Assembly (NCBI GenBank): GCA_965222605.1 | Contig: OZ244960.1 | Span: 2,016,001 to 2,080,000, forward strand | Direction: 5' to 3' | From: Candidatus Latescibacterota bacterium | GTDB lineage: Bacteria; Latescibacterota; UBA2968 | DNA: 64,000 bases | Part shown: positions 2,813 through 45,498 of the stretch, piece by piece | How the letters are laid out: each line of letters starts with the position of its first letter | How positions within the stretch are numbered: position 1 is the first letter of the stretch | Position numbers and translations under genes: made by a program | The notes under the pieces: generated by a model | Told to the model about the DNA's origin: nothing | The model's database searches: none | Seen by the model: the letters and a program-made list of their open reading frames with translations, nothing else

Positions 2813-2933
2813 AGTGTTCATTTTCGGACACCACTGTATCAAAATCGGACACTTTTTAAGACGCTAAAATCAGGTGATTTTTCGTAACCTATTGTTATAT
2901 CAGTATTTGACTTTTTCGGCACAGTTTTTGCTT
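2813..2933 (+). promoter_or_regulatory. Sigma-54 promoter module copy 1 (paired UAS, IHF-like site, -24/-12)
   Basis: TGT-N10-ACA and TGT-N11-ACA boxes; GG-N10-GC (CGGCACAGTTTTTGC, GG at 2918); repeated at 36387 and 41058. Confidence 0.85.
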
Positions 2934-2955
2934 AATAATTGTATAATCCTCAGCT

Positions 2956-5427
2956 ATGCTCAGTAATGGTAAAACACAGTGGAGGCCCAATATGATCTGG
3001 AATTATCTCACCGTTGGATTCAGAAATCTGCGCCGGCACGCCTTCTATTCACTCCTGAATATCCTCGGATTGGCTGTGGGTATTGCGTGCATGTTATTGG
3101 CGGTATTGTATGTGGGTTATCAGTTTCGTTTTGACCAGCACCACGAAAAGAGCGACCGCATTTACAGAGTCATCCGAAAACTCCAGGATGTCAGCGGCGA
3201 ACGCTACGACCTGGGAACAAAGCCCGTCGCCCCTCATTTGCGCGACAAATTTCCCGAAGTTGAGGCAGTGACCCGGATGCTCGTAAGAGATATGTGGGCA
3301 TCTAACGAAGATCGCGGTTTCAATACGCGCGTTTGCATAACCGATGCGGAGATGTTCGACATTTTTACCCTACCAATGGTGGTCGGCGATCCCAAAACCG
3401 GACTAAACGATCCCCATACCGCGTTTCTCTCCCAGACATTGGCCCACAAATTGTTCGGCGATGAAGACCCGATAGGCAAGACCGTCAATATTCACTACAA
3501 ATGGTTTAAGGGCGATTTTACGGTTACCGGTATCCTGAAGGATCAACCAAAGACATCAAATGACAAGCTACAATTCGATTTTCTCACCACCACATATCCA
3601 CAACCATCGGATAAATATCCAGAAAACCGATGGCGAATACAGGTGTGGGAAGAGTGGCCCTCGACCTGGTTCATCGGACCGTTGCGGACCTATGTATTAT
3701 TACGCCAGGGAGCCGATGTTACTGAACTGCAAAAAAAACTACACGCTTTTGCTGCCGATCACCAGCTTGCCGGTCCTGAACGCTATGATTTCTATTTACA
3801 ACCGCTCGACCGCATCCATTTGTACTCGATGCAAGATTACGGCACCGCGGAGCTCAAAGCCGGGGACATCACGCGCTGCTATATGCTGCTATTCATCGGG
3901 CTGCTGGTGCTGTTGATCGCCTGCATCAATTACATCAATTTGATAACGGCGCGGTCAGCCAACCGGCTGCGCGAAGTTGGCCTGCGCAAGGTCGTGGGTG
4001 CAACGCGGTTGCAATTGATGGGTCAATTTTTGGGCGAGTCCCTGCTCATCGTCTTATTGGCAGGTGTGTTGGCAGTCTTGTTTGCCATCGATGCCCTGCC
4101 CTTTTTTAATAAATTCATGGGTATCGATCTGCATTTGACCGACGCAGGTTCGGCATTCGTCCTGGCACTGTCGCTGTGTGTATTATTGGGCACGGGCCTG
4201 CTCGCCGGAAGCTACCCGGCATTTGTCTTATCGGCATTTGAGCCGGTTCGCGCGTTAAAAGGCACGCTGCAATCTCGGCGCATGGGTTTGAATCAAGTGA
4301 TGGTTGTCCTGCAGTTCGGTGTGGCTGTGGTCTTGATCATCACGACACTGGTGGTGTACAGTCAGCTTGCGTTCGTGCGTAGCAAAGAACTGGGATTTGA
4401 AAAGGAACACACCGTCATTCTGCCGTTCTTTTTGAAAGACCGCGGACTGCGGCCACAGGCGAAAACAATCCTCAATGAATTGCGCGCACAGCCGGGTGTG
4501 TTAAAAGCATCAGCATTTCACCTGACGCCTGGGCAAATCGGTCCAGATAGACGCATTCTGCGCGCCGAAGGGCATGGCGATGAGACATTCAAGTTCTACT
4601 GGAACGGCATTGACGACAGTTATCTCGATCTGTTTGGATTGTCCATTGCATCGGGCAGGAACCTGATTGGTATGCCTGCCTTTCGCCAAATCGACGAGAA
4701 CAAATGGGAAGTTTCCGCGCTGATCAATGAGACAGCCGCGCAGGAACTCGGATGGGACGATCCTGTGGGCAAGTCTTTTTTTTCTACTAATGGCCGGGTT
4801 CAAAGCCGGGTAATCGGCGTGGTCAAGGATTATCACAACCAGTCGCTGCACTATGGCATTGCACCCATGATCTTGCAAAACTCCACCAGTGTGAACCGGA
4901 TTGCCGTACACCTGGCACCCGGGGACCTGAGGGCGCAACTCGCCACGCTGGAAAGCGTGTGGAAGCAGTTTTTGCCAACCCGACCTTTTGAGTATCAATT
5001 CTTCGACGAAGTACTCGATGCGTATTACCGATCGGAGATAACACTGCAAAAGGTATGCGGGATTTTTGCCGCGCTGTCAATTTTTATCAGTTGTTTGGGG
5101 ATGCTCGGATTGATCGCGTTTTCCGTACAACAACGCACCAAAGAGATCGGCATTCGCAAGGTACTCGGTGCTTCGGAGGGGAATATCATTCTGTTGCTAA
5201 CCCGCAATTTTCTGTGGCTAACTATCATAGCCAATGTGATCGGATGGCCGGTAGCGTATTTTCTGATGTCCTCCTGGCTCAATGATTTCGCCTACCGCAT
5301 CGAACTGGGACCACTTATGTTCATTGCCACGGGACTATTGACACTGGGAATTGTGCTCGTGACCGTGGGCGGACAAGCCTGGCGTGCGGCCTGCGCCAAT
5401 CCAGTTGACGCGCTGCGGGATGAGTGA
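2956..5427 (+). CDS. ABC permease, duplicated MacB_PCD/FtsX (#1; start may be 2992)
   Basis: NYL..FRNL, IACINYINL, REVGLRKVVGA, RTKEIGIRKVLGA, ANPVDALRDE. Confidence 0.93.
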   Translation: MLSNGKTQWRPNMIWNYLTVGFRNLRRHAFYSLLNILGLAVGIACMLLAVLYVGYQFRFDQHHEKSDRIYRVIRKLQDVSGERYDLGTKPVAPHLRDKFPEVEAVTRMLVRDMWASNEDRGFNTRVCITDAEMFDIFTLPMVVGDPKTGLNDPHTAFLSQTLAHKLFGDEDPIGKTVNIHYKWFKGDFTVTGILKDQPKTSNDKLQFDFLTTTYPQPSDKYPENRWRIQVWEEWPSTWFIGPLRTYVLLRQGADVTELQKKLHAFAADHQLAGPERYDFYLQPLDRIHLYSMQDYGTAELKAGDITRCYMLLFIGLLVLLIACINYINLITARSANRLREVGLRKVVGATRLQLMGQFLGESLLIVLLAGVLAVLFAIDALPFFNKFMGIDLHLTDAGSAFVLALSLCVLLGTGLLAGSYPAFVLSAFEPVRALKGTLQSRRMGLNQVMVVLQFGVAVVLIITTLVVYSQLAFVRSKELGFEKEHTVILPFFLKDRGLRPQAKTILNELRAQPGVLKASAFHLTPGQIGPDRRILRAEGHGDETFKFYWNGIDDSYLDLFGLSIASGRNLIGMPAFRQIDENKWEVSALINETAAQELGWDDPVGKSFFSTNGRVQSRVIGVVKDYHNQSLHYGIAPMILQNSTSVNRIAVHLAPGDLRAQLATLESVWKQFLPTRPFEYQFFDEVLDAYYRSEITLQKVCGIFAALSIFISCLGMLGLIAFSVQQRTKEIGIRKVLGASEGNIILLLTRNFLWLTIIANVIGWPVAYFLMSSWLNDFAYRIELGPLMFIATGLLTLGIVLVTVGGQAWRAACANPVDALRDE

Positions 5428-5498: not shown

Positions 5499-7365
5499 AT
5501 GTATAAAACAATTAAAGTATTTGTTTTTCTGCTCGCCTTTGCACCATTGAATACCGCATTTTCTACTGAGTCCGCGGAAACGGTTTTTAATCAAGGGATT
5601 GATTACCTCTACGAAGGCGAATGGGAAAAAGCCGGCAAGTCATTCAAAAAAGCTATCGAATTAGATCCAAATTTTCAAAAAGCCCATGAATATTACCAGA
5701 ATGTCGAGTTCTTTTTCTTTGAGAGAAAGGAAGAAATACGCACCGAATACAGAGAACGGATCAAAAAAGACCCCCACAATGCTGTTCTATATGTTCTCTT
5801 AGCTCTGTTCTATATGTTCTCTTAGCTCGTATTCTTGATCGGAATTCTGACGAAAGAATTGAATTACTGGAGCAAGCAATAGGTATAGATTCAACCTTTA
5901 CGTCCGCTTATACTCAGTTGCTTTCGGCATACCGTCCGAATTATGAAAAAGCTCAAGATATCCTTTCAAAAGGATTAAAAATCCAGCCCCATTCAATCGA
6001 ATTGATTATGGCACAAGCAGGGTTGTTTGCATCCATGGGAGAACCTGAGCGCGCACAAGACCTGTATCGTAAAATCATCACGTCATATCCAGATTCAATT
6101 GATGCCTGCAGGGCTTATCGCGAACTTGCGTCTTCAGAAGAAAACGACGAAAAAAGAATAGAATTGCTGGAAAAGACGATGACTTTAATGGAACAAACGG
6201 ATTTCGTCTTTACTGATATATATTTGGATTTGTATCAAGCTTATGAAAAAACAAATCCTCAAAAGGCTGTAGATCTGGCCGAAAAAATAACCCAAATCCG
6301 TCCTCCTTTTTTCGATCGCCGGTCACCATTATTCGCATACCAATTTCTCTATGACCACTGGATCAAATCGGATACAACCAAAGCAACAGATGTAGCTGTT
6401 CAGGCTTTGAATTCCAATTCAAGAAACTTCAACATCTATTCATATCTGGGCTTTCAACTTATACAAATAGAAAGAGAGATTCCATTAGCGATCCAATTGC
6501 TTAACAAGGCTAAAAAATTCAATAATCCAGGCCAGTTGTGGGGACGTACTCACGGAAGTGATTACCCGCGCAGCCAAAGCGAATATTCAAAGACCTCTGA
6601 AGAATTGTATGCGTATTATGAAAGTTTGCTTGGACGTGCCAAATTTGTCAAAAAAGATTACACTGAAGCGATTCAGCATTTGTCGTCAGCAATTGGTAAA
6701 ATGGGCGATTCCGCTTTAGATGCTGAAGGCTATTTCTGGATGGGCAGAGCATACGAAAAGATAGAAAAGTGGGATGATGCACTGGTCGCATACGCAAATA
6801 GTTTGGCAGAAAGAGAAGATAAGAATGTGCGTAAGTTTGCCGAGCGTTTGGGAAGCCGAATTACTGGGCTTAAGACATCTGTTCCTGAAAAAAAGTCGTC
6901 ACTATTGATGAACTAATCTCGGAAGCACAGATCAAAAAAAGTATGCCTGCGCCAGATTTCCAGGCGGAGACCCTTAAGGGGAAAAAAGTCTCTTTGTCAG
7001 ACTATCAAGGCAAAGTTCTAATACTTGACTTTTGGGCTACATGGTGTGGACCCTGTTTAGCAGAATTGCCATATTTTCAAGAGTTAGTGAACCTTTACAA
7101 GGACGAACCATCTGTTGCTTTTCTCACAATTAGTCAGGATCGATCCAAAGATGTCGTCCGAAAATTCATGAAAAAAAAGGGTTACACATTTCCCGTTATT
7201 TTTGATACGGGTATGGGCCAACTTTTCGAAATTGAAGGCATTCCCGTCTTAATAGTTATTGACACAGAAGGAAAAATACGATACAGGCATTTTGGATTTG
7301 ATCCCAACAATGTTGACTTCATCCAACTGATGAAGAAAGAGATACAGATCGTCCTGATGAAATAA
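5499..7365 (+). pseudogene. Secreted TPR + TlpA-like thioredoxin protein split by two frameshifts
   Basis: Signal peptide and TPR repeats; a 23-bp tandem duplication (5782-5827) and an A7 run (6888-6894) break the frame; C-terminal DFWATWCGPC domain at 6943-7365. Confidence 0.8.
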
Positions 7366-8315: not shown

Positions 8316-10751
8316 ATGTTTCGCAATTATATCCTCATAGCAGTTCGAAACTTGCTCAAGTATAAATTTTATTCCGCTATAAACATCATTGGACTCGGAA
8401 TAGGTATCGCCTCTGTAATCTTGATCATGCTATTTATTCAGGATCAAGATAGCTATGATAGCCAGCATGTGAATCGGGATCGAATTTATCGTGTGATTCG
8501 AGCATATAAGTCTGAAAATGGGGAAAAAGTATATGATTGGAGATTGTCTGGCGCGACAGGCCCTGCACTGGTTCAAGATCTTCCCGAAGTTGAGGCAGCC
8601 GTTCGCACTATGATACGTCGTGAATGGATTCAACACGAGGATAAGATTTTTAATCAAGCCTTTTGCCTCGCCGATCCCAATTTTCTGGATATTTTCACGT
8701 TTCCTCTTATTCGCGGAGATAAAACAGCGTTATTACAACCCAACTCGGTTTTGATAACCGAATCAGCCGCAAAAAAGTTTTTTGGCGAAAAAGACCCAAT
8801 TGGAAAAGTGATCAATGTAGGGGAAGGTTACGTCGAGGGTGATTATACGATTGCCGGTATCATGCGCGATGTCTTAACGCATAGCACATTGCAATTTGAT
8901 TTTCTTTCCTATTCTGTTCACCCAGAATTTACCACCTGGCATGAATGGCGGCCCAGAGCCAGATGGCGTGCGTTTTCCATTTTTGTACTATTGAAAAAGG
9001 ACATTTCTCCAGCCTCTCTCGAATCTAAATTTTCCGCATTCATTGAACGTCATATGGGACGGGAGATTGCCGTAACCATGGAGTATTTCTTACAACCTTT
9101 AGAGGAAGTTTATCTTTATTCCAAACGGGATTACGATCTCAGGCATACGTATGCATCAGAGGGTAAGATACCCCAGGGTAACATCACACAAATTAACACA
9201 GTATTTTTTGCAGCAATTTTTATTTTGCTTATTGCTTGTATCAACTTCACAAATTTGGCAACTGCACGGTCCGCAAACAGGGCCAGGGAAGTTGGCCTTC
9301 GGAAAGTCGTTGGTGCCAGTCGAAAAAATTTGATATGTCAGTTCATAGGAGAATCATCCTTACTGGCAGTTATAAGTTTAATTATTGGCATTAGCATCGT
9401 AGAACTCGCACTTCCAATATTTAATACCTATGCGGGAATCCATCTCTCCCTGGATTTCAACAGTGGTTTAATACTGGAGTTTCTGGGATTGGCTCTATTG
9501 GTAAGCCTTATAGGAGGATTTTATCCGGCGTTTTATTTATCACACTTTCGACCTATAGAAACACTGAGGGGAAGGCTTAATACAGGATCCCGAGGTAAGG
9601 TGCTACGGCAAGCCCTCATCATATTTCAATTTGGGATCTCAATCGTCTTGATTGTTGTGACATTTATTGTGCTCGGACAGGTACACTATATTCAAAATAA
9701 GAACCTTGGTTTCGTCAAAGACCAGGTAATCGCAATGCCGATCTTCTGGGAACATCGCAAATCACCAGACGGCATGAACGATTCCCTGAATAAAAGGTAT
9801 AATATTGTAAAACAAGCATTTTTGCAACATCCGAACATTACCAAAGCCACCATATCGCGTTTTAAGCACGGCATAGATGCGCCTCTTAATTCCTTCAGTG
9901 CTTATCAAGGTGAACAAAACGAGAGGTGGATGCAAATAAACGAGGTTGACGAAGACTTTATTCCGTTTTTTGACATTGAACTAATTGCGGGCCGAAATTT
10001 TTCAAAAAATGCTGTAAGTAACTTTTTTTCAGGAGAACAGGAATATATCCTCAATGAGGCAGCTATTAAGGCACTGGGATGGACAGCACCGATAGGCAAA
10101 AGATTCGGATTTAAAGAGCAGAAATCAGGTGTCGTTGTAGGTGTCGTAAAAAACTATCACACGCAATCTTTGTATGAACCTATTGAACCTATGGTATTAT
10201 GTCCCAGTGATTATGTTGCTAAAATACTCTATCTCAGAGTCTCACCTGAATACTTCGACGAAACAGTAGCATTTATGAAGCAGACTTGGGAACAGTTTTT
10301 ACCTTCGCGTCCCTTCAGTTATACTTTCCTGGATGATGATTTAATGCTGCAATATGAAAATGAACGCCAATTGAGCAAAGCTATTGGTGTGTTCTCTATG
10401 CTGTCCATCTTTATAGCTTGTTTGGGGCTTTTGGGCCTTGTTTCATTTTTGGCCGAACAGAGGAGAAAGGAAGTAGGGATTCGGAAAGTACTGGGTGCGT
10501 CAGAAACCAATATCATCATGTTAATGCTTACAGAGTCTTTTAAGCTTTTTCTAATTGCCTACCTATTGGCAGGACCCATCTCTTATATGGCTATCATGAG
10601 CTGGCTACAAGGATTCGCATATCGCATTGACATGACAATATTTCCTTTCTTAGTAGGCGGAATATGTGCGTTTACGATATCTATATTTTCTGTGATACCT
10701 CAGGTATTGAAAGCTGCTCATATTAATCCTGTGGAGGCATTAAAACATTAA
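8316..10751 (+). CDS. ABC permease, duplicated MacB_PCD/FtsX (#2)
   Basis: AAGGAG RBS; MFRNY, IACINFTNL, RAREVGLRKVVGA, NPVEALKH. Confidence 0.93.
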   Translation: MFRNYILIAVRNLLKYKFYSAINIIGLGIGIASVILIMLFIQDQDSYDSQHVNRDRIYRVIRAYKSENGEKVYDWRLSGATGPALVQDLPEVEAAVRTMIRREWIQHEDKIFNQAFCLADPNFLDIFTFPLIRGDKTALLQPNSVLITESAAKKFFGEKDPIGKVINVGEGYVEGDYTIAGIMRDVLTHSTLQFDFLSYSVHPEFTTWHEWRPRARWRAFSIFVLLKKDISPASLESKFSAFIERHMGREIAVTMEYFLQPLEEVYLYSKRDYDLRHTYASEGKIPQGNITQINTVFFAAIFILLIACINFTNLATARSANRAREVGLRKVVGASRKNLICQFIGESSLLAVISLIIGISIVELALPIFNTYAGIHLSLDFNSGLILEFLGLALLVSLIGGFYPAFYLSHFRPIETLRGRLNTGSRGKVLRQALIIFQFGISIVLIVVTFIVLGQVHYIQNKNLGFVKDQVIAMPIFWEHRKSPDGMNDSLNKRYNIVKQAFLQHPNITKATISRFKHGIDAPLNSFSAYQGEQNERWMQINEVDEDFIPFFDIELIAGRNFSKNAVSNFFSGEQEYILNEAAIKALGWTAPIGKRFGFKEQKSGVVVGVVKNYHTQSLYEPIEPMVLCPSDYVAKILYLRVSPEYFDETVAFMKQTWEQFLPSRPFSYTFLDDDLMLQYENERQLSKAIGVFSMLSIFIACLGLLGLVSFLAEQRRKEVGIRKVLGASETNIIMLMLTESFKLFLIAYLLAGPISYMAIMSWLQGFAYRIDMTIFPFLVGGICAFTISIFSVIPQVLKAAHINPVEALKH

Positions 10752-10781: not shown

Positions 10782-13193
10782 ATGGTTTTGAGTTATCTCC
10801 GCACATCTTTCCGCAATCTTTTTCGGCACCGCCTTTACACGCTCGTCAACATCCTTGGCCTTGCCGTGGGGATGGCGGCTTGTATCCTCGTTGGTCTGTT
10901 CTTGCAGCACGAGTTCAGCTATGACGCCTATCATCGGGACATAGACCGCATTCATCGCGTGCTAAGGCTTGTACACCCATCAGGTGGCAACCTTCCATAC
11001 TATCCATTCGGCACTCAATATCGGGCTGGCTCCACACTTGTCAATGAATTGCCCGAAATTGAAGATATGACTCACTTCATCACGCGGCCCATGTGGGCTG
11101 GTCTTGAAGATCGCGGCTTCGATGTGCGCGGTACTGTGGCCGATCCCAACTTCCTGCGCTTTTTCACCTTTCCCTTGATCGACGGCAGCCAGCCACCCGA
11201 ATTAACACCTGGAACCGTCTATATCACAGAAAGTTTTGCACAAAAGCTCTTTGGCACCACTAAAGTTATCGGGCGAACGCTCAAGATTTACTACAAGTGG
11301 GTGGAAGGCGACTTCAACATCGGCGGTATTCTCCGCGATCAGCCAGCTACCACGTCGGGTGAGTTTGTGTTTGACCTGTTAGTCACTTATGAGGGAATCC
11401 CCGATTCCGCAGGTCCACCCTGGAGAAGGCAGTGGTCTCCCACAACAAGATTGCTCGTTCTAAAAACCTTTGTTCGGCTCGCGCCTGATGCTTCCCTATC
11501 ATCTCTTCGTCCCAAGCTGGATGATTTTGCACGCCGCCATCTGGGCAATGGCGCTGATCCGCGTGACACCTACGACCTTATGCCTTTGCGTCGTCAGCAT
11601 TTGCATGCCCGACGCGATTTCCAATTGCAGATGGGTGTGTTGGACCAGCAGGACGGCCTTGTGCAGGGGGACATCAACCGCTGCTATGCTTTTGGCCTTG
11701 TAGGGGCAATCATTTTGGCGCTGGCATGTGTCAATTTTGTAAACCTCTCCACAGCACGGGGAGCGAACCGCGCCCTGGAGGTTGGTGTGCGCAAGGCCGT
11801 GGGATCCACACGCGCCCAGCTTGTCACCCAGTTTCTCGGAGAGACTATTCTCCTCGCCGGGATATCGGCTATTTTAGCACTTGCCATTGTCGAACTAACA
11901 CTTCCCATAGTGAATAGCGTACTAATTTCTTCTTTACAAATAAACATCTGGTCCGTCGTTGGTGCTGCATTGCTCGCGCTCTTTGTCGGCCTAACTGCTG
12001 GTGCCTATCCAGCGGTATTCCTATCATCCTTTGTCGCGGCACAAGTCTTAAAAGGATCAGGACAGAAGATCGGCGGACAATCCCAACTCCGGCGAAGTCT
12101 GGTAACTCTTCAGTTTGCCATTTCGGTAGCCCTCGTCATTGGTACCCTCATTGCCTGGCAGCAAACAAACTATATCCGCACACGCGACCTCGGGTTTGCA
12201 AAAGAGGGCTTGATTACAATGCCCCTGCTTAAAGAAGATCGACGCTTGCGTGAGCACTTTGAAAGCATTCGAGACCGTTTTGAAGCAAGTCCCGACGTTC
12301 TGGACGCGACTGTTTCTCAGGCTCCGCCCGGTTATGAAAATAATACTGATCGCTCGCTAATGAGACGGCTGGACCTGACGGATTCCGTGAATGTCCACTT
12401 CTTGTCGGTGGATCATAAATTTACCGAGGTCTATGACATCCCCATCCTCGAAGGCAGGCCGTTGGCCCTAACTGACAAGGACCAATTAAACTTGCTCCTG
12501 AACGAAACAGCCGCTCAGACACTGGGCGGCGTAAAACCGGGTACCGTCCTGCGCGTTTGGGGGAGGGATTTCACTGTCGTTGGTATTTTCAAAGACTTTC
12601 ACAACAGCAGTCTGCACAATCCCGTGCGTCCCTTGATGCTTAGATATCGACCAGATTACGATTATGTCACCGTCAAAGTACGTATGGACAACCTGCCCAA
12701 AACACTGGATTTTCTCGCATCAGTCTGGAAGGATTATGTACCGGCTCACGCCTTCAAATTCCTCTTTGTCGATGAGTTTCTAAACAACTTCTACCGCGGC
12801 GAGATGCGTACCCAGAACGCCTTCACCTATCTTTCGGGCCTGGCCATTTTTGTCGCCTGTCTGGGGCTTTTGGGTCTGATTGCCTATACCACAGAAGTCC
12901 GCACCAAAGAAATCGGTGTTCGCAAGGTCCTTGGTGCATCATCTGGCGATATTCTAATTCTCCTCCTGAAAGAATTTGCGGTGCTCATCATCGTCGCAAG
13001 TCTGCTGGCATGGCCTGCCGCATATCTCTTCACCCGGTCCTATCTCGACCGCTTTGCCTACCGAATTGATCTGGATCCAGGCGTGTTTCTCGCCGGAAGC
13101 CTGCTGGTGCTTTTGATCGCGTTCTGCACCATCAGCTTTCAAGCCGTCCGTGCTGCACGCGCCAATCCAGTTGACGCGCTGCGTTATGAGTGA
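10782..13193 (+). CDS. ABC permease, duplicated MacB_PCD/FtsX (#3)
   Basis: GGAGG RBS; LACVNFVNL, EVGVRKAVG, RTKEIGVRKVLGA, ANPVDALRYE. Confidence 0.93.
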   Translation: MVLSYLRTSFRNLFRHRLYTLVNILGLAVGMAACILVGLFLQHEFSYDAYHRDIDRIHRVLRLVHPSGGNLPYYPFGTQYRAGSTLVNELPEIEDMTHFITRPMWAGLEDRGFDVRGTVADPNFLRFFTFPLIDGSQPPELTPGTVYITESFAQKLFGTTKVIGRTLKIYYKWVEGDFNIGGILRDQPATTSGEFVFDLLVTYEGIPDSAGPPWRRQWSPTTRLLVLKTFVRLAPDASLSSLRPKLDDFARRHLGNGADPRDTYDLMPLRRQHLHARRDFQLQMGVLDQQDGLVQGDINRCYAFGLVGAIILALACVNFVNLSTARGANRALEVGVRKAVGSTRAQLVTQFLGETILLAGISAILALAIVELTLPIVNSVLISSLQINIWSVVGAALLALFVGLTAGAYPAVFLSSFVAAQVLKGSGQKIGGQSQLRRSLVTLQFAISVALVIGTLIAWQQTNYIRTRDLGFAKEGLITMPLLKEDRRLREHFESIRDRFEASPDVLDATVSQAPPGYENNTDRSLMRRLDLTDSVNVHFLSVDHKFTEVYDIPILEGRPLALTDKDQLNLLLNETAAQTLGGVKPGTVLRVWGRDFTVVGIFKDFHNSSLHNPVRPLMLRYRPDYDYVTVKVRMDNLPKTLDFLASVWKDYVPAHAFKFLFVDEFLNNFYRGEMRTQNAFTYLSGLAIFVACLGLLGLIAYTTEVRTKEIGVRKVLGASSGDILILLLKEFAVLIIVASLLAWPAAYLFTRSYLDRFAYRIDLDPGVFLAGSLLVLLIAFCTISFQAVRAARANPVDALRYE

Positions 13194-14389: not shown

Positions 14390-14474
14390 CCCCCGCCTCA
14401 GTACCAATCTTAGTTGATGAGCATTTAAAAAATGGACGAAAACTTGACAGCCTGCACAGTTTATGGAGGATGTG

Positions 14475-17594: not shown

Positions 17595-17628
17595 TCAGAC
17601 ACTTTCGAGAAAGGAATAAATAAAACAA

Positions 17629-18462: not shown

Positions 18463-18483
18463 GTATTTTCATCCCTAAAAATT

Positions 18484-19095: not shown

Positions 19096-19250
19096 AGTTT
19101 CCTCTGGCAGATATTTGCAAATAGGTTATTTATCATTATATTCAAAAATTGGAGAACCTTGGCCGATTCTACCATCTTTAAAACCAAGGCCCTGCGCGGA
19201 GGGTGGTCGATTCACCCAGTTCAACGGCGCATCCAAGGAGGCACGACGCG

Positions 19251-33819: not shown

Positions 33820-36216
33820 TTATTCGTACCGAAGCGCATCCACAGGGTTTGAACGCGCAGCTTTCAAAACGTGATAGCTCACCGTTAAAAGGGTAAGAAA
33901 GAGAGTCAGAAAGCCACTAATAGCGAACGCCCAAATTGGAAAAGATATATGGTATGCAAAATCGTTTAACCATTGCCCCACAGCATAATAGGCAATTGGC
34001 CATACACAGAGATTAGCCACCACAACCAACTTTATATACCCTCTAAAAAATAAAAAAACAACGTTCCAAATTGATGCTCCAAGAACTCTACGGATCCCTA
34101 TCTCTTTTATGCGTTTGTTCATAGCTAAAGCTGCAAGGCTAAAAATTCCAATACAGGCAATAAATATTGAAAATATAGAACCTGATCTACTTATCCTTTC
34201 CCAGCGTTCTTCCGCTCGATATTGGTTACCCAGGTCCTCGTCAAGAAAAGAGAATTGAAACAGAAGATGCGGATTTAATTCTGTCCACTTTTTTTTTAAT
34301 AGATTCAAAGTATGTTGAACTTCTACAGGACTTATCCGCACATAAATATATTGGTATCTGTCGGGACGATCCAACTCGAACACAGCAGGCTCAATCTGAT
34401 GGTGTAGAGATCGAGAATGGAAGTCTTTGACAACACCCACAATTTGTCTATTTCTAAATTCTGGAAGCATTTTGCCTATGGGCGATGTCCATCCAAACTC
34501 TCTAACCAATGCCTCGTTTACAATAATACTGCCATGCAAATCTGAATTCGAATCCTGGATAAATCCTCTTCCTTCACTTAATTTTATCCCAAGCGTTTCA
34601 ATAAAATTGGGAGCAACATCGAAAAATTGAACCTCAATCACAGAACCCTTGCACTTAACGCTCGTCGTCCAAATCAATCCCCCAAAGTGTACAAAAGATG
34701 CCGTAATACCCAGGACACTGGGATAACGGGATAATTCAGATTTATAAACTGTATAAAGATCTGACCTTTGCTCCTTATCTGGTTGGGATGCATCAATGAC
34801 TACGACTTGTTCGTCTTGAAAACCTCGATCTTTTGTTTTCAAATAATCTATCTGTTTAAAGGTGACAATCGCAAAAATGATTAGAAAAATTGATACCGAA
34901 AATTGAGTGGCTATCAGAGCTTTACTGAAAAAATTAGAGCCGCCAAGTTTTAAATTCCCTTTGAGCGTGTTAATTGGAGAATAGCCAGACAAAACGATCG
35001 AAGGGTAACTGCCGGCAATGATTCCAACAAGAATAGATAGCACAACGAGAGCAACAATCACTTCACTGCCATAGTCTAAGACCAGCTCTTTATTGGCGAC
35101 ACTGTTAAAAAGAGGTAGAGCAAGTTCCGCGAATGCGATTCCGACAAATAGCCCAATAAGACTTAATAACAGTGCCTCGCCCCAAAATTGTTGCATAAGT
35201 TGCAATCTCTCTGCTCCTACAATCTTACGTACACCTATTTCTTTAATACGAGTAGAGGCTAAAGCCATAGAAATATTGGCAAAATTGATACAGGCAACCA
35301 ATAGAACACCAAGAGCGATTCCAAGAACTACAAATGAGAATATTCTGTCTCCTATTGGCAATAATCCGCCAAGGATATCTGCATTCAAGTGAACATCGTA
35401 AAGAGGCTGTAAATCCAATTGAAGCGCATCATCGCTTAAAGCCAGCGCATCGTATTCTTGGTATTTTTGAATAGTTGATTGATAGTATTTTTGTATGAAC
35501 TCGGGAAATTTTGGGATGAGTTTCAAAGCATCGGCATTTTCCGATAGCAGTACATATGATATGACTCTGGAACTTCCCCATAGGTCAGCATACCTCTCAT
35601 AATTTGGTTGCATTTCAAATGGCAAAAGAAAATCAAATTTTAAGCTCGAATTCTCAGGTGTCTCCGATACGACACCTTTTATTACAAAATCGATATACTC
35701 TGCGTTTATCCTCACAGCGAGCGTCTTATCAATCGGATTTTCTCGATCAAAATACTTATGAGCCATCCTTTGACTGATTACTATTGATGCTCTATTATGG
35801 AGGGCTGTTTTGTCTCCATCCAAAAGGGGAAATGAAAAAACTTCAAAAACATCAGGACCTGCAAAGAGCATATTTTCGACAAACATTTTGTCTTTATATT
35901 TTACAACACATTTTTTTTCTCTAAATCTCACGACTTTTTCTATTTCGAGAAAATCGCGCTTTAATGCAGCAGCCAAGGGCGTTGGAACGCGTGCAGAATT
36001 TCTTATCTCTCCATTAGGGTTCTTTCTGATCTCATAGATACGATAAATTCGATCCAGATTCTCGTGGAATGTATCGTATGTCCACTCGTTGTGAATGTAA
36101 CGAAGGGTCAAAATGCAAAAGGCAATCCCTATGGCCAGGCCGAGGATATTAGTGAAGGAATAGACTTTTTGTCTCCAAAGATGACGAAGTGCAACTACCA
36201 GATAATTCTTGAGCAT
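33820..36216 (-). CDS. ABC permease, duplicated MacB_PCD/FtsX (#7, inverted)
   Basis: GGGAG RBS and MLKNYL; VACINFANI, RIKEIGVRK, SNPVDALRYE. Confidence 0.93.
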   Translation of the reverse strand: MLKNYLVVALRHLWRQKVYSFTNILGLAIGIAFCILTLRYIHNEWTYDTFHENLDRIYRIYEIRKNPNGEIRNSARVPTPLAAALKRDFLEIEKVVRFREKKCVVKYKDKMFVENMLFAGPDVFEVFSFPLLDGDKTALHNRASIVISQRMAHKYFDRENPIDKTLAVRINAEYIDFVIKGVVSETPENSSLKFDFLLPFEMQPNYERYADLWGSSRVISYVLLSENADALKLIPKFPEFIQKYYQSTIQKYQEYDALALSDDALQLDLQPLYDVHLNADILGGLLPIGDRIFSFVVLGIALGVLLVACINFANISMALASTRIKEIGVRKIVGAERLQLMQQFWGEALLLSLIGLFVGIAFAELALPLFNSVANKELVLDYGSEVIVALVVLSILVGIIAGSYPSIVLSGYSPINTLKGNLKLGGSNFFSKALIATQFSVSIFLIIFAIVTFKQIDYLKTKDRGFQDEQVVVIDASQPDKEQRSDLYTVYKSELSRYPSVLGITASFVHFGGLIWTTSVKCKGSVIEVQFFDVAPNFIETLGIKLSEGRGFIQDSNSDLHGSIIVNEALVREFGWTSPIGKMLPEFRNRQIVGVVKDFHSRSLHHQIEPAVFELDRPDRYQYIYVRISPVEVQHTLNLLKKKWTELNPHLLFQFSFLDEDLGNQYRAEERWERISRSGSIFSIFIACIGIFSLAALAMNKRIKEIGIRRVLGASIWNVVFLFFRGYIKLVVVANLCVWPIAYYAVGQWLNDFAYHISFPIWAFAISGFLTLFLTLLTVSYHVLKAARSNPVDALRYE

Positions 36217-36308
36217 AATCAACTCCCTATATGTATCAGTAATATCTACAATAAAGACACTCACAGAATGCTAAAAGTGTCGGTTTGTACCTCGATATAG
36301 TAAATTTT

Positions 36309-36386: not shown

Positions 36387-36506
36387 AGTGTTCATTTTCG
36401 GACACCACTGTATCAAAATCGGACACTTTTTAAGACGTCAATTTCAGGTAATTTTCGTAACCTGTTGTTATATCAACATTTGACTTTTTTGGCATAATTT
36501 TTGCTC
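36387..36506 (+). promoter_or_regulatory. Sigma-54 promoter module copy 2
   Basis: Identical 49-bp UAS core; TGGCATAATTTTTGC (GG at 36491). Confidence 0.85.
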
Positions 36507-36593: not shown

Positions 36594-38981
36594 ATGTGGA
36601 AAAATTATCTCACCATAATCATTCGAAACATTCGCAATCACAAACTTTATTCATTGATTAACATAGTAGGATTAGCGGTGGGTCTGACGAGTTGTGGCCT
36701 AATCCTCCTATGGATACAGCATGAGACAAAATATGATCAACACCATCTCAACGGCGACCACATTTACAGGGTATTGAGACAGGTTAAAAATAAAACGTCT
36801 GGGGATTCCTACTTCAATTATGGCACCCTGGGACCTGTAGGCCCTGCTCTAAAAGCCGACTTTCCTGAAATCGAAGCGATGACCCGAATATTTACCCGTA
36901 ATGCGTGGATTCGGTACAAAGATAAGGGATTCCAAGAGAACTTCTGTGTTGCCGATGGTAGTTTTTTCGATGTATTCACATTTCCTTTACTAAAGGGCGA
37001 TCATCAGGCACTACTGAAACATCCTGCTTCTGTGGTTATTACGGAAACGGTTGCACGAAAGTATTTTGGTAATGAAAATCCTGTCGGCAAGGTTGTTACT
37101 GTAGAAAGTCGTTATACGGGGGGTGATTATGAAATTGTAGGCATCTTGAAAGATTTGCCGAGTCAATCAACACTCCAATTCGACATACTGACGTTTACTA
37201 TTCCTTCTTTACCACTGATGCATGCGGTTTGGGAAAGATGGCGTAAATCTTCTTTTCGTCCTGTCCAAACTTATCTATTGCTTTCTGAAGGCACTTCCTC
37301 TGCTGATTTAGAGCGTAAACTACCGGACTTTACCACCCGCTACTTTGATCTTGAAACGCGTGCGAACACAACGTATCACCTGCAACCTTTTCGCCGGATC
37401 TATCTCTACTCACGTTCAGACTACGGTATAGCAGGTGGTGGAGACATTACATATATCTATTTATTTTCTGCGATCGGTACTCTGATTCTTCTGATCGCTT
37501 GTGCGAACTTTATGAATTTGGCAACAGCGCGTTCAGCCAAAAGAGCAAGAGAAGTGGGCATTCGCAAGACCGTCGGCGCACACAAACTTCAATTAATCAA
37601 CCAATTCTTCAGTGAATCGCTATTCATATCACTCCTGTCTTTGCTATTTTCAATTTCACTGATTGAGCTTGTCCTGCCAACATTCGAACAATTTGTGGGC
37701 ATAGACTTGCGTTTTGGCGTCTCTGATCTCTTCTTAATGATCGCTCTTACCGTACTGATGGGATTACTCGCAGGAAGCTATCCCGCTTTCTTTTTGTCGA
37801 GTTTTCAACCTGTACAGGTATTAAGCGGCAAGCACTCAAACGCCTTAAAAGGTGTTCGCATACGAGAGGTCCTGATCGTCTTTCAGTTCTGTGTGTCTAT
37901 CGCCCTCATAATTTGCACTGGTGTAGTCTATCAGCAACTGAATTACATAAAAAATAAAAAACTTGGCTTCAACAAAGAGATGGTGGTCATGATGCCGCTA
38001 TTTGCAACAGACCGCTCCCTCACAAGTAAGTATAAATTGATCAAACAGGAATTTCTCAAACATCCCAATATTCACCGTGCAACCGCATCTCAAATCACAC
38101 TCTGGTATGACGGAGGACGTGAGCTTGTCATTCCAGAAGGAATGGATGGCGAAGAGGTCAGAATGAGGCATCTGGTAGTAGATGAAGACTTTTTGGACAC
38201 ATTCGAAATCGATGTGATAGCCGGAAGAAATCTGAATAAAGATATTGCAAGCGACTCTTTCGAAGCATTTATTCTCAACGAGACGGCTGTTAAACAACTC
38301 GGATGGAAAGATCCTGTTGGAAAGCAATTTACCTGGCCTCTTAATAATCGTCGCGGAACAGTAATCGGGGTCGTGCGCGATTTTCATCTGCTGTCTCTCC
38401 ACGAAGAAATAGAGCCAATTTTCATTTGCAAGTGGCAGACACAATGGAATTGGCTATCAGTCAAAATTGGACGAGAGAACATATCATCAACAATAGATTT
38501 CATGGAGTCAAAGTGGAAGCAATTCATTCCAAACCGGCCTTTTGACAGCTCATTTCTAAGCGAAAATCTTGAAAGATCTTATCTAAAGGAAATCGAGATC
38601 TTCAGTGTCCTCGAAATCTTCACGCTTCTCGCTTTTTTTGTCGCTTGTATGGGATTATTTGGCCTTGCAAATTTCAGTGTCGAACAAAGAATCAAAGAAA
38701 TTGGCATCCGCAAAGTACTGGGTGCAAACCTTGTAGATATTTTTACATTACTTTCAAAAGAATTCCTGAAGTTAATCGCAGTTGCTTATGTCTTGGCTCT
38801 TCCCCTCGCCTATTATGCCGGGGAAGAATGGCTACAAAATTTTGCATACCGAATAAATCAGAGCATCCTTGTTTTTATTATAGGAGCAGTCTCGGGCATC
38901 ATTGTCACCCTATCAATCGTAGGCTATCAGGCTGGCAAAGCCTGGTCTGAAGACCCGGTTAAAATGCTCCGGCAAGAATAA
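36594..38981 (+). CDS. ABC permease, duplicated MacB_PCD/FtsX (#8)
   Basis: GGAGG RBS; IACANFMNL, RAREVGIRK, RIKEIGIRKVLGA. Confidence 0.93.
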   Translation: MWKNYLTIIIRNIRNHKLYSLINIVGLAVGLTSCGLILLWIQHETKYDQHHLNGDHIYRVLRQVKNKTSGDSYFNYGTLGPVGPALKADFPEIEAMTRIFTRNAWIRYKDKGFQENFCVADGSFFDVFTFPLLKGDHQALLKHPASVVITETVARKYFGNENPVGKVVTVESRYTGGDYEIVGILKDLPSQSTLQFDILTFTIPSLPLMHAVWERWRKSSFRPVQTYLLLSEGTSSADLERKLPDFTTRYFDLETRANTTYHLQPFRRIYLYSRSDYGIAGGGDITYIYLFSAIGTLILLIACANFMNLATARSAKRAREVGIRKTVGAHKLQLINQFFSESLFISLLSLLFSISLIELVLPTFEQFVGIDLRFGVSDLFLMIALTVLMGLLAGSYPAFFLSSFQPVQVLSGKHSNALKGVRIREVLIVFQFCVSIALIICTGVVYQQLNYIKNKKLGFNKEMVVMMPLFATDRSLTSKYKLIKQEFLKHPNIHRATASQITLWYDGGRELVIPEGMDGEEVRMRHLVVDEDFLDTFEIDVIAGRNLNKDIASDSFEAFILNETAVKQLGWKDPVGKQFTWPLNNRRGTVIGVVRDFHLLSLHEEIEPIFICKWQTQWNWLSVKIGRENISSTIDFMESKWKQFIPNRPFDSSFLSENLERSYLKEIEIFSVLEIFTLLAFFVACMGLFGLANFSVEQRIKEIGIRKVLGANLVDIFTLLSKEFLKLIAVAYVLALPLAYYAGEEWLQNFAYRINQSILVFIIGAVSGIIVTLSIVGYQAGKAWSEDPVKMLRQE

Positions 38982-41057: not shown

Positions 41058-41177
41058 AGTGTTCATTTTCGGACACCACTGTATCAAAATCGGACACTTT
41101 TTAAGATGCCAATTTCGGGTGATTTTTCGTAACCTGTTGTTATATCAATATTTGGCTTTTTGGCACAGTTTTTGCAG
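41058..41177 (+). promoter_or_regulatory. Sigma-54 promoter module copy 3
   Basis: Identical 49-bp UAS core; TGGCACAGTTTTTGCA (GG at 41162). Confidence 0.88.
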
Positions 41178-41228
41178 TAAAAATGAGGACTCCTGATACT
41201 ACTGTAATTGCCTATATGGAAAATAGAA

Positions 41229-43010
41229 ATGCAAAAACCACCATCATCTCTACCCGCTTTTTTATGGCACTTCCTACGTCCCCACAGACTGAGCGTTTTG
41301 GGATTAGTTGGTACGGGCGTCTTTTGGGCATTGGAAATGTCTTTCAAACCCTATTTGGTCAAATTGCTCATTGACGGCATTGTGGCTTATGGGGAAACGG
41401 CGGAAAATTTATTTAATCTGGTCGTTTTACCGGCAATTTTCTATGTGGCGTTATTGGAAGCGAACAATTTCAACTATAGAATGATGGATTTTATAAAGTT
41501 GCGGCTGATACCCAATTTAGAAAGGGATATCTCTGCCAGCATGTTCGATTATCTGGAGCGACATTCGTACCAATATTTTCAGAACCAATTTGCCGGAAAC
41601 CTTTCAAACAAGGTTATGGATATGGCAAGGGGAGCAGGAACGATTGTGGAGAGAATGGAGACATTTTTTTCTCACTTTACTGCACTGATTATTGCATCCA
41701 TTCTGCTTTTCTTTATTCATCCATTTTTTGCACTCGTTTTTGTTCTTTGGGCCGCTCTTTTCCTATCCGGTACTGTATTTCTTTCAAAGAGATCACACCA
41801 GTATTCAACCATTGCATCCGAGTCGCGCAGCATTGTAATGGGGAAAATTGTGGACAGTCTTGCCAATGTCATCAATATACATCTCTTCGCACGCAACAAG
41901 TACGAAAAGGAATATCTGCATGGGTACTTAAATGATGTAATGGAAAAAGACCGACGACTGAGGTGGTACCTGTTCAAGATCAAATATCTACAAGGATTTT
42001 CAATTACTTTGCTGGTAGGGGGTTGGCTCTTCTGTCTCGTCTATTACTATTCCCGGGGGCTGATCACCATTGGGGATTTTACGTTTGTCCTTACACTGGC
42101 AATGACGATTGTATGGGAAGTATGGAGATTGGCAGACTCACTTGTAGGATTTTCACAAGAACTGGGGATTTGCCGACAGGCCATTGCCATCGTAACAATT
42201 CCTCACGAGATTGCAGATGTTCGCGGAGCCAAACGGCTGAACATTTCAGATGGCGCGATTGTTTTCGACCAGGTCAGCTTCCACTACGTTCCGGGACGTG
42301 ATATTTTTGAGGATAAGACAATAGAAATTCAGGGAGGTCAGAGGGTCGGTTTGGTTGGATCTTCCGGAGTCGGTAAAACCACATTTGTCAATTTGATTCT
42401 TCGTTTCTTTGATGTGCAGAACGGGCGTATTCTGATTGATGGACAAGATATCAGTCAAGTCAAGCGAGAGTCACTCCACGAGCAAATAGCGATGATACCC
42501 CAAGATCCCGGTTTATTTCACCGCACATTGATGGAGAACATACGCTATGGTCGATTGGATGCGACAGATGAAGAAGTGATTGCGGCTTCTCAAAAGGGAC
42601 ACTGCCACGAATTTATCGAGCAGATTGAAGGCGGCTATCAGGCACTGGTTGGTGAACGCGGCATTAAACTTTCGGGAGGGCAGCGTCAGAGGATCGCCAT
42701 TTCAAGAGCCATATTGAAAAACGCTCCTATTCTCATCTTGGATGAGGCGACATCGGCCCTTGATTCAATTACTGAAAAATACATTCAGAAAAGCCTGGAA
42801 GACCTCATGAGAGATCGGACAACCATTGCTATCGCCCACCGCCTATCAACGCTTGCCACGATGGATCGCATTCTGGTGTTCAAAGATGGACAGATTGTTG
42901 AAGATGGTACGCATGTAGAACTTTTGGAACAGAAAAGCCACTATTTCCATTTGTGGCGTATGCAGGTCAGAGGTTTTTTGCCGAGAGAATCGAACAATGG
43001 TGAAAATTAG
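41229..43010 (+). CDS. ABC exporter, fused TMD-NBD (MsbA/MdlB type)
   Basis: N-terminal TMs; GSSGVGKT, LSGGQRQR, ILDEATSALD, IAHRLST. Confidence 0.93.
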   Translation: MQKPPSSLPAFLWHFLRPHRLSVLGLVGTGVFWALEMSFKPYLVKLLIDGIVAYGETAENLFNLVVLPAIFYVALLEANNFNYRMMDFIKLRLIPNLERDISASMFDYLERHSYQYFQNQFAGNLSNKVMDMARGAGTIVERMETFFSHFTALIIASILLFFIHPFFALVFVLWAALFLSGTVFLSKRSHQYSTIASESRSIVMGKIVDSLANVINIHLFARNKYEKEYLHGYLNDVMEKDRRLRWYLFKIKYLQGFSITLLVGGWLFCLVYYYSRGLITIGDFTFVLTLAMTIVWEVWRLADSLVGFSQELGICRQAIAIVTIPHEIADVRGAKRLNISDGAIVFDQVSFHYVPGRDIFEDKTIEIQGGQRVGLVGSSGVGKTTFVNLILRFFDVQNGRILIDGQDISQVKRESLHEQIAMIPQDPGLFHRTLMENIRYGRLDATDEEVIAASQKGHCHEFIEQIEGGYQALVGERGIKLSGGQRQRIAISRAILKNAPILILDEATSALDSITEKYIQKSLEDLMRDRTTIAIAHRLSTLATMDRILVFKDGQIVEDGTHVELLEQKSHYFHLWRMQVRGFLPRESNNGEN

Positions 43011-43086
43011 TTTGGCATTATTAATAGTGTGAACACACCGTTTCTGATGAAAAAAAGGAAGTTGATAGAATAAGAAGGGATTCGCA

Positions 43087-45498
43087 ATGTTTGAAAACTA
43101 TCTAAAAGTTGCAGTTCGAAACCTGTTTAAGTTCAAGATGTTTTCGTTCCTGAATATCAGTGGTTTAGCTATTGGGATGGCATGTTGTATTTTGGTTTTT
43201 TTATATATACAGGATGAAATGGGGTACGACCAGTTCCACGAAAAAAGCAATCGCATTTACCGGGTGCTAAGAGAAAGGAAAGCCAATAGCGGCGAATTCC
43301 AGACGCATCCGGGTACGTCAGGTGCGCTTGCACCGTCTCTGTTGAAAGATTTTTCAGAAATACAAAGTGCTGTCCGGACCTGGGACATTGATACGTGGAT
43401 AAACTATAAAGAGAAATGGTTTCAACAAAAATTTATGATGACCGATTCTAAAATCTTTGAAATCTTCTCTTTTCCTTTCGTAAAAGGCGATCCGGGGACA
43501 GCCCTGATGGAACCCTATACCGTTGTTCTCACTCAGGAAATGGCGAATAAATTTTTTCCCGACGAAGATCCCATAGGCCGAACAATCACCGTTGAACATC
43601 GATATTTTAGAGGGGATTACAAAATCACAGGTGTCCTGAAAAACATTCCAATAAATTCGACAATTCAATTCGATTTTCTCGCTTCGTCTGCTTCATCGGA
43701 ATGGAGACAAAAAGAATTTGCTGGCATTGTGTGGGAAAGGTGGCAACGCGAGAGTGGTTGGCTGCCAATAGAAACTTTTATTTTGCTACAAGAAGGGTAT
43801 CCACCTTTCAAATTGGAACAAAAATTGAGCGATTTTATGCTTCGTTATATGGGGGAGGAAGTCCAATCACACAATGTATATCACCTTCAACCGCTTAACC
43901 GCATTCACCTCTATTCTAACGTAGATTACGATATGACCATGTATAGTGACATCTCGTATATCTACCTACTCTCTACACTTGCCTTTTTTATTTTGTTCCT
44001 TGCCTGTATCAATTTTGTGAATCTCGCTACGGCACGCGCCACCACCAGGGCAATAGAAGTAGGTATGCGGAAGGTGGTAGGTGCTGACCAGCGGATATTG
44101 ATTGTACAATTTTTGGGAGAATCCTTTCTGCTGTCATTACTCGCCCTCTTGTTGGCATTGAGTTTTGTTGAGCTTTTCCTGCCTACCTTTAATGCCTTTA
44201 CACTTAAGGCATTATCACTAAGTATCCAGAACGGATCTCTATTGGTCGGATTATCCGGTATTACGGTATTGGTCGGCCTATTTTCCGGAATTTATCCTGC
44301 TTTTGTTTTATCTGCCTTTGAGCCTATGGATATTCTCAAAGGAGGCAAGTTAGTTGCTACTAAAAACAGCACTCGATTCCGAAAAGGATTGGTTATTTTT
44401 CAATCCTCAATTTCTGTTATATGTATCATCGGCACGATAACCGTCTTCAATCAAATGAACTATATGAGGAATAAAGACCTCGGTTTCGATAAAGATCACG
44501 TCATGGTTCTGGAGTTATACCAGACAGATCGATCATTGGCGAGCAATTATCGCGCAATACACCAGGAATTTCTAAAACATCCAGATATATTGGCGGCAAC
44601 GGCTTCTCATTCATTGCCCAATATTTGGTCGGGAGAGCACTGGGTGGTTTACCCAGAAGGAAGCAATTCGGATGGTTGGGAGATGAATATATTGGCTGTT
44701 GATGAGAACTTTTTGGATTTTTTTGACATCGAAATTAAAGAAGGCCGAAATTTCTCAAGCGACATTGGACGCGACACCACAAGTGCCTATATCCTGAATG
44801 AAACGGCGGTCAAACAACTGGGTTGGGAGAAGCCAATTGGCAAACGGTTTGAGTGGAATGATAGGCCCGGAAAAGTAATTGGCGTCGTCGAGGATTTTCA
44901 TCTGCTATCTTTGCACGAAAAAATAGGACCTGTTTTCGTCTGCATGTGGGTTTCCAAATGGAATAATCTCTCCCTCAAAATTCGGAAAGATAATATTGCC
45001 AACACGATCCAATTCGTGGAAAACCAGTGGAAACGACTAATCCCAAATCTTCCCTTCAACTTTTATTTTTTAGATGAAAACATAGATAAATTGAATTATG
45101 AGGCTGAAATAAAATTAGAAAAAATGCTCCGAGTAGCGTCATTGATTACAATTTTTGTAGCCTGTCTGGGCTTATTTGGGCTAACTGCCTTTACCGTACA
45201 ATATCGCACCCACGAAATGAGTATCCGAAAGGTACTGGGTGCTTCTAAGTTCAACATTTGGTGGTTGCTCGTGAGGGATTTTTTAAGACTCCTTTTATTC
45301 ACCAATATCATTGCATGGCCCATAGCTTTTTTCGTCATGGAGGCCTGGCTGCAGGATTTTCATTATCGCGTTCCTGTGGATCTTATAACGCTGATCCTGG
45401 GTAGTGGGATATCCCTGGTGATTACCCTGCTTACCATCGTCTATCATACCCTGAAAACTGCTTTGTTAAATCCCATTCATCATTTGCGGTACAAGTGA
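43087..45498 (+). CDS. ABC permease, duplicated MacB_PCD/FtsX (#9)
   Basis: MFENYL, LACINFVNL, EVGMRKVVGA, NPIHHLRYK. Confidence 0.93.
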   Translation: MFENYLKVAVRNLFKFKMFSFLNISGLAIGMACCILVFLYIQDEMGYDQFHEKSNRIYRVLRERKANSGEFQTHPGTSGALAPSLLKDFSEIQSAVRTWDIDTWINYKEKWFQQKFMMTDSKIFEIFSFPFVKGDPGTALMEPYTVVLTQEMANKFFPDEDPIGRTITVEHRYFRGDYKITGVLKNIPINSTIQFDFLASSASSEWRQKEFAGIVWERWQRESGWLPIETFILLQEGYPPFKLEQKLSDFMLRYMGEEVQSHNVYHLQPLNRIHLYSNVDYDMTMYSDISYIYLLSTLAFFILFLACINFVNLATARATTRAIEVGMRKVVGADQRILIVQFLGESFLLSLLALLLALSFVELFLPTFNAFTLKALSLSIQNGSLLVGLSGITVLVGLFSGIYPAFVLSAFEPMDILKGGKLVATKNSTRFRKGLVIFQSSISVICIIGTITVFNQMNYMRNKDLGFDKDHVMVLELYQTDRSLASNYRAIHQEFLKHPDILAATASHSLPNIWSGEHWVVYPEGSNSDGWEMNILAVDENFLDFFDIEIKEGRNFSSDIGRDTTSAYILNETAVKQLGWEKPIGKRFEWNDRPGKVIGVVEDFHLLSLHEKIGPVFVCMWVSKWNNLSLKIRKDNIANTIQFVENQWKRLIPNLPFNFYFLDENIDKLNYEAEIKLEKMLRVASLITIFVACLGLFGLTAFTVQYRTHEMSIRKVLGASKFNIWWLLVRDFLRLLLFTNIIAWPIAFFVMEAWLQDFHYRVPVDLITLILGSGISLVITLLTIVYHTLKTALLNPIHHLRYK

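Follow-up and report, generated by a model that had tools for sequence, protein, structure and literature searches.

The stretch of DNA analysed here (the window) comprises 64,000 nucleotides of Candidatus Latescibacterota bacterium (contig OZ244960.1, positions 2,016,001 to 2,080,000) and carries an array of nine double ABC permeases. The array is one of two large permease clusters in the genome, the second lying at C1:3.06-3.15 Mb, and both probably belong to a genome-wide regulon of ADOP-like type VII permeases. The most likely reading, with a probability of roughly two in three, is that many old, specialised permeases draw on a few common ATPases and a single adaptor furnished by a sigma-54 regulon; the permeases would clear the envelope of hydrophobic or peptide-like molecules. 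Each permease would be a self-contained pseudo-dimer with two coupling helices, needing two separate ATPase subunits; these would be supplied in trans by A, B and C, three ATPases like DarD, and one DarC-like adaptor would serve the shared ATPases. An NtrC-type activator with its kinase would bind a tandem upstream site and open sigma-54 promoters, raising motors and many permeases together. The reading is based on gene counts, a shared regulatory module, the link of the activator through gene neighbourhood, purifying selection and conserved coupling helices. From these we infer binding by the activator, co-induction, exchange of permeases on the same motors and the class of substrate.

Permeases, ATPases and the adaptor

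The nine genes had been described as ~800-amino acid (aa) double MacB_PCD/FtsX permeases with intact frames, and a domain scan of the window, which covered 56 of its 116 open reading frames (ORFs), agreed: all nine ORFs are intact and encode proteins of 790-829 aa with two MacB_PCD and two FtsX domains. Permeases 1 (2956..5427, with a likely start at 2992), 2 (8316..10751), 3 (10782..13193), 4 (14463..16835), 5 (28584..31058), 6 (31129..33618), 8 (36594..38981) and 9 (43087..45498) are on the forward strand and permease 7 (33820..36264) is on the reverse strand. Pairwise identity is 32-54%, and among the paralogues the periplasmic domains are 34% identical against 43-44% for the membrane parts.

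The model of permease 4 (from a 63-sequence alignment; predicted local distance difference test, pLDDT, 87.8) has eight transmembrane helices and two periplasmic domains. Its four-helix unit, in which the large periplasmic domain is placed between the first and second helices, is that of a type VII ABC permease. Passages of PMC5985334 place a major coupling helix between helices 2 and 3 of such permeases and a minor helix at the C-terminus; these are kept in both halves, and both coupling helices are conserved in all nine permeases. Over the 63 sequences conservation is highest in the coupling helices and the C-terminal helix (0.63, 0.65 and 0.72) and is 0.41-0.42 in the periplasmic domains. 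YbbP, MacB and LolCE were among the Foldseek matches of the model, with YbbAP as top match (E 3e-19, TM 0.47, 14% identity). In YbbAP, a single duplicated permease engages two separate ATPases by way of its two coupling helices (passages of PMC12646458).

That the window itself holds no stand-alone ABC ATPase, adaptor or TolC had also been stated, and family searches of the whole genome (6.34 Mb in one contig, C1; 98.7% complete), in one of which 150 of 197 candidates were scored, placed none there. The sole ABC domain listed in the window is that of an MsbA-like fused exporter of a different ABC class (41208..43010, forward strand; domain scan).

The genome encodes 35 intact double permeases; ten partial permease ORFs elsewhere, split or cut, were read as six loci. 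Only three ATPases belong to the cognate clade, and there are ten of MacB/LolD type in all (> 147 bits to ATPase A), so the permeases outnumber the ATPases genome-wide, as proposed. ATPases A and B are in the adaptor operon (C1:3.10 Mb), in the second cluster, where the adaptor gene is accompanied by ATPase A, a permease, ATPase B and one more permease. ATPase C (C1:1.52 Mb) is solitary, with no permease adjoining. The motor and adaptor genes are 0.5-1 Mb from the window. According to the gene lists, five of the other seven MacB/LolD-type ATPases adjoin their own, different permease genes and two have no adjacent one. Over 21 genomes of the genus, permease matches number from 8 to at least 25 (at least 25 in 11 genomes) and ATPase matches 1-5.

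A single matching adaptor was found (C1:3100481-3101836; RND_mfp 122.9 bits, cut-off 94.9). It has a module upstream and is a periplasmic adaptor, as in MacAB-TolC, encoded in trans to the window; its closest homologues (89-92% identical) are all from Ca. Latescibacterota. The ATPases keep the motifs that we take to be Walker A/B, signature and H-loop. ATPases A and B (L001:7770-8447 and L001:4307-5044) are 50% identical and occur as a pair, with motifs intact, from Latescibacterota to Ignavibacteria; one A and one B subunit may sit together on the two unequal halves of a permease.

Structure prediction of a permease with an ATPase, suggested as a check, gave a score of 0.49 for permease 4 with ATPase A and 0.00 for the best of three controls, with runs agreeing in at least 98% of contacts and a partner pLDDT of 83. 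In calibration just 18 of the 157 solved complexes passed with a score of 0.60 or less, as did 2 of the 215 mismatches, which were all the mismatches that passed. The predicted pair thus exceeded its controls, and the score lends weak support to a fused double permease working with a separately encoded ATPase; as like complexes have already been solved, it may reflect likeness only.

The shared sigma-54 module and its probable activator

A tandem upstream site is present in 13 copies in the genome and is followed by a sigma-54 box in 12, with a site-to-GG distance of 103-104 nucleotides (nt) in all 12. An IHF-like site lies 32-33 nt ahead of the GG in each of these, which gives 12 of the 13 the layout of an enhancer-dependent sigma-54 promoter (GG-N10-GC box, tandem site ~100 nt away and IHF-like site between); the motifs were named by what we take to be the IHF and sigma-54 consensus. 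The thirteenth site lacks a sigma-54 box and is followed by a split permease. At all 13 sites the first or second gene encodes a permease, the adaptor or ATPase C, and both the adaptor-ATPase operon and the lone ATPase C have a tandem site with a sigma-54 box. Mean identity is 93% for the tandem site and 53% (minimum 20%) for the spacer; since the site is conserved while spacers diverge, the spacing and motifs of the module are under constraint. The genome also contains rpoN and four genes of the HU/IHF family.

Three modules lie in the window, all on the forward strand. Module 1 (2814..2933) consists of a tandem site (2814-2852), an IHF-like site and a sigma-54 -24/-12 box from 2917 (CGGCACAGTTTTTGC), which confirms the box and the tandem site expected at the start of the array. 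Module 2 (36388..36506) stands ahead of permease 8 and divergent from permease 7, upstream of which no sigma-54 box of its own was seen. Module 3 (41059..41177) precedes the MsbA-like exporter, its first gene, and then permease 9. With three modules (at 2814, 36388 and 41059) and permease 7 on the minus strand, the array is not the single sigma-54-headed unit of the original prediction. One operon of nine was rejected on these grounds and on that of an intrinsic-terminator-like hairpin of 14 pairs with a T tail (19848..19878, forward strand; a consensus match only). The hairpin probably ends the first sigma-54 transcript, after permease 4; together with a TnpB element and an IS256 transposase it stands between the first module and permeases 5-6. 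Genome-wide, seven intact permeases are no more than 600 nt behind a module and 24 of the 35 are in a co-directional run behind one, three of these at 18-28 kb.

The tandem site was found in 20 of 20 congeners (1-12 copies), in none of 4 further genera belonging to the family and in 5 of 16 sister-family genomes, counts in which kin are not independent; as a control, the 39-nt site pattern reversed had 0 matches in 41 genomes. It is upstream of the adaptor in all 18 closest loci, and among the 18 genomes with the lone ATPase at least 8 have the site ahead of that gene. An extracytoplasmic function (ECF) sigma factor (L004:153-734 = C1:3149152-3149733) lies behind a module here, and many Latescibacterota loci (L019-L035) have such a factor as the gene immediately ahead of the adaptor; a sigma-54 to ECF cascade could operate.

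Among the 18 strong sigma-54 activator domains listed in the genome, one belongs to a receiver-AAA+-HTH (helix-turn-helix) protein (C1:2913166-2914548) encoded with a kinase, which besides rpoN is what a sigma-54 promoter calls for. Homologues of this activator and kinase face the adaptor operon, within 10 kb, in 14 of the 17 loci from outside Latescibacterota and in 2 of the 30 Latescibacterota loci. The gap between activator and adaptor operon contains near-identical tandem sites in those two Latescibacterota loci and related half-sites in several others. All five sister-family genomes with the site have one 129-214 nt from the activator, and the two such loci that were retrieved both run kinase-activator, site, a series of permeases, ECF sigma factor, adaptor, ATPase A. 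Of 20 congeners, 19 have one copy of the activator. Judged by these neighbourhoods, the activator/kinase pair has moved away in the present genome, and one activator is tied to the site through gene order in relatives, in line with the single enhancer-binding protein that had been postulated. The motif, specific in 13 of 13 copies, ties permeases at scattered loci to the adaptor operon and to the solitary ATPase C and names one activator and kinase, so that the label 'orphan' becomes a short list of testable pairs and one promoter. In one congener (G009; L080, C1:1849500-1869499) another double permease has been inserted near the kinase gene.

By hydropathy, 13 of 14 homologues of the kinase have two N-terminal transmembrane segments separated by at most nine residues, and the fourteenth showed one segment. 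Pfam returned HATPase_c only, and the long cytoplasmic region before the H-box looks PAS-like. A kinase almost without an outer loop, as in sensing of the BceAB-BceRS type, suggests BceS-like sensing through the permeases. The permeases may then be chiefly co-sensors, with the kinase reading the activity of the ligand-bound permease-ATPase complex as BceS reads BceAB, and each extra permease being an extra input to one positive feedback loop; motors would be those proposed above, and the main output would differ. In Bacillus subtilis, where a duplicated MacB-type permease likewise has a separate ATPase and a kinase with no outer sensor domain, BceS senses via BceB and active BceA and not alone; however, that system has one permease with one periplasmic domain and no adaptor (passages of PMC5985334), whereas here a sigma-54 activator and dozens of permeases are found. 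One activator against dozens of permeases, and a regulon lacking TolC, would also suit a sensory role. We nevertheless consider it unlikely that sensing is the chief function: the conserved adaptor (dN/dS 0.11) points to transport, the long cytoplasmic region of the kinase, which we take to be PAS-like, may sense inside the cell, and short-loop kinases are common.

Selection, gene order and competing explanations

Each window permease forms its own orthologue group (3-11 sequences, 87-97% identity). Ratios of non-synonymous to synonymous substitution (dN/dS) were obtained pairwise by domain with the Nei-Gojobori method, which involves no site models, so a few selected sites could escape. Values of 0.11-0.23 indicate purifying selection in all nine: 0.11 for permease 5, 0.13 for permease 2, 0.15 for permease 1 (nine orthologues in congeners), 0.17 for permease 7 (three sequences), 0.19 for permease 6, 0.20 for permease 3, 0.21 for permease 9, 0.22 for permease 4 and 0.23 for permease 8. 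By domain, the 18 periplasmic domains had dN/dS values of 0.08-0.34; for the 27 membrane or cytoplasmic segments the range was 0.05-0.26. ATPases A and B gave 0.05-0.06, the adaptor 0.11 and 12 neighbouring genes 0.11-0.29. As old divergence of the paralogues is combined with low dN/dS, the diversity of the permeases, to judge from these alignments, is old and preserved and not visibly racing.

Gene order differs among congeners. The nine permeases are not one clade in a quick tree. Permease content differs in all 13 regions compared (four of them just 15-20 kb), and both orders were seen for 6 of 33 permease pairs, all within permeases 5-9; one of the two permease-3 copies of G005 and unassigned paralogues were left out of the pair count. 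A 20-kb control region kept its gene order in 9 of 9 close congeners, which showed nothing beyond gains and losses, and two more distant ones differed (by eye). Rearrangement junctions lie near stop codons and short leaders, and the permease-3 copies of G004 and G005 end like permease 1; these positions and ends suggest recombination at conserved 3' ends, along with duplication with loss. Duplicated relics, as well as the three module copies, are found inside the window. An integron cassette array was rejected, as there is no repeat family between successive genes and no TIGR02249 match over the cut-off. When contigs from four sequencing runs were compared with 27000-46900, one run was identical in the eight pieces listed, and this run may itself be the source. 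Joints at 28591-40364 (two runs) and 45531-36570 (one run) fit other gene orders in what are mixed samples, with the strain not assignable.

Several results weigh against a regulon of shared motors. Of the 35 intact permeases, 11 lack a module within a co-directional run, and no 9-mer common to at least three of these 11 was found upstream, so a second shared motif for the module-less permeases was rejected. With these 11, and three more at 18-28 kb from their module, co-induction would be partial and would not extend to all copies as originally claimed. Although the site predicted at partner genes is present at the adaptor-ATPase operon and ATPase C, pattern and site searches gave none at the activator operon in this genome, and autoregulation through such a site was rejected here. 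The activator loop reads GAFTDA and not GAFTGA; among 17 homologues, 15 have GAFTDA or GSFTDA and two have GAFTGA. None of the genome's seven TolC-like genes is in the regulon; five of them adjoin apparent RND operons (judged by the lengths and N-termini of the genes), and none matches the TolC of Bacteroidota loci better than weakly (≤ 56 bits). TolC is present in 4 of 17 non-Latescibacterota loci (L040, L042, L043 and L046; weak scores). The permease sequences are not neutral, as anticipated, but diversifying selection, looked for by domain, was not seen, and at the level of whole periplasmic domains (dN/dS at most 0.34) it was rejected. Finally, permease genes are often gained, lost or broken, which redundancy would fit too.

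Redundancy in its full form would make the permeases largely equivalent dosage copies, reshuffled by local duplication and loss, with modules travelling with the duplicated genes. The changing content (13 of 13 regions), the 6 of 33 pairs in both orders, the relics and three module copies in the window, the ten partial ORFs elsewhere and permease dN/dS values like those of cargo genes (0.11-0.29) are all consistent with this. It is nonetheless quite improbable, since the nine are old paralogues (32-54% identical, and not one clade in the quick tree), each kept as a separate orthologue group at 87-97% identity. Moreover, modules with unrelated spacers (minimum 20% identity) retain site, IHF-like motif and spacing, and where the lone ATPase is present, in 18 genomes, a module precedes it in at least 8. 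It is highly improbable that the window permeases act without ATPases in trans, as binding sinks or scaffolds, while the ATPases serve neighbouring permeases only: no ATPase lies within ~0.5 Mb and the permease 4-ATPase A score is weak, but both coupling helices are conserved in 9 of 9 and ATPase C has the same module though no permease is beside it.

A bolder form of the proposal that few ATPases serve many permeases is combinatorial envelope surveillance. Dozens of specialised permease receptors would be combined with three interchangeable ATPases (possibly in mixed pairs on the two unequal halves) and one kinase lacking an outer sensor in a dispersed, self-amplifying sigma-54 regulon, and the receptor set would be edited from species to species by whole-gene shuffling without integron machinery. 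This we regard as rather doubtful.

Known systems and other genes of the window

ADOP proteins are defined by internal duplication, an acidobacterial lineage and the absence of adjacent ATPase genes. The window permeases are like them in length (~800 aa), in duplicated MacB_PCD/FtsX domains and in forming large clustered paralogue families, and ADOP (TIGR03434) is the best NCBIfam match for all nine. They differ in scoring 262-322 bits, below the cut-off of 622.3 in 9 of 9, in the phylum of the host, and in that paralogues flank ATPases A and B at C1:3.09-3.10 Mb. The array thus resembles ADOP outside its cut-off and lineage, and would operate in the manner of a YbbAP/MacAB-type system.

Psychroflexus torquis has a 42-kb cluster of ten ADOP-type paralogues, highly translated (PMC3914696), Dyadobacter has 28 and 33 copies (PMC11573002) and the Acidobacteriota metagenome-assembled genome CO124 has 102, of which 80 were transcribed (PMC10564751), as given in passages of these papers. 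Copy numbers of ADOP-type permeases range from tens to a hundred across several phyla, and the genes are expressed (passages of PMC10564751 and PMC3914696). The relevant passages of all three papers name no motor or regulator, and those of PMC10564751 and PMC3914696 give no substrate. No paper on a shared motor or on this regulon for ADOP-type permeases was found in a search outside which most subscription papers lie, and the terms permease, ABC, MacB, FtsX and efflux do not occur in the main text of a paper on sponge Latescibacterota (PMC12993501). ADOP-type expansions and clusters are thus already published, and the shared-motor regulon was not found in the literature searched. If true, exchange on shared ATPases would break the usual rule of one permease, one ATPase for type VII ABC systems.

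DarC is the best NCBIfam match of the adaptor and DarD that of all three ATPases, and DarB is second for all nine permeases; however, all fall under the cut-offs (DarB at most 176 of 700 bits, DarC 190 of 450 and DarD 239-281 of 375). Neither a darobactin-type precursor peptide nor a radical-SAM maturase was found among the 56 window ORFs scanned, the second cluster not having been searched. MacAB-TolC likewise combines a type VII permease with an adaptor and an ATPase, but here the ATPase is separate and not fused to a four-helix homodimer permease, there are many permeases per motor, and the regulon has no TolC. The genome has an apparent YbbAP-TesA of its own at C1:5.007-5.011 Mb, with what we take to be the TesA motif. 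YbbAP-TesA of E. coli (PDB 9GE6-9GE8) shares one duplicated chain with two periplasmic domains, two coupling helices and two separate ATPases; it differs in the ten helices of YbbP, two of them extra linking helices, against eight in the permease 4 model, and in being single-copy, with a hydrolase partner and no adaptor (passages of PMC12646458).

The original statement that many neighbours of the permeases are broken was overstated. Clear breaks were found in 3 of 17 genes with comparable relatives, in addition to relic fragments: a TPR-thioredoxin gene in three pieces (5499..7365, forward strand; 88-90% to a single 614-aa protein of congener G015), a shortened ankyrin gene and an acyltransferase gene split by the IS256 transposase (26576..27841, forward strand; domain/family scan and comparison with relatives). 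The TnpB element (23796..24914, forward strand) was identified by domain/family scan. Small co-directional cargo genes occupy 17037..23612 on the forward strand (two NUDIX, methyltransferase, kinase-like, antibiotic monooxygenase-like, ankyrin, GNAT and APH-like) and are also found in congeners with the order partly changed. GNAT, NUDIX, methyltransferase, APH-like, HAD and GrpB genes (17037-23612 and 39020-46123) are interleaved with the permeases without attC sites; they are retained in congeners under purifying selection, with partial reordering. Genes of these types are frequent as integron cassettes.

The MsbA-like exporter is present in 1 of 12 congeneric regions, and the others retain just its ends ahead of permease 9. 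Divergent from module 1, an ECF sigma factor is fused to a 3-keto-disaccharide hydrolase domain (1525-2682), and this fusion gene holds the same border in 8 of 12 congeneric regions fetched. A short interspersed repeat lies 3' of grpB (46100-46260); blastn gave 49 pieces of it genome-wide, and four runs show a strong depth peak there. Farther downstream (47090-63287) is a cluster encoding PhyH dioxygenases, sulfatases, a GHL6 hydrolase and a DUF6785/DUF6784 membrane protein. An 800-nt overlap joins the DUF6785 gene and the sulfatase frame that follows, which may represent a frameshift or a long false start.

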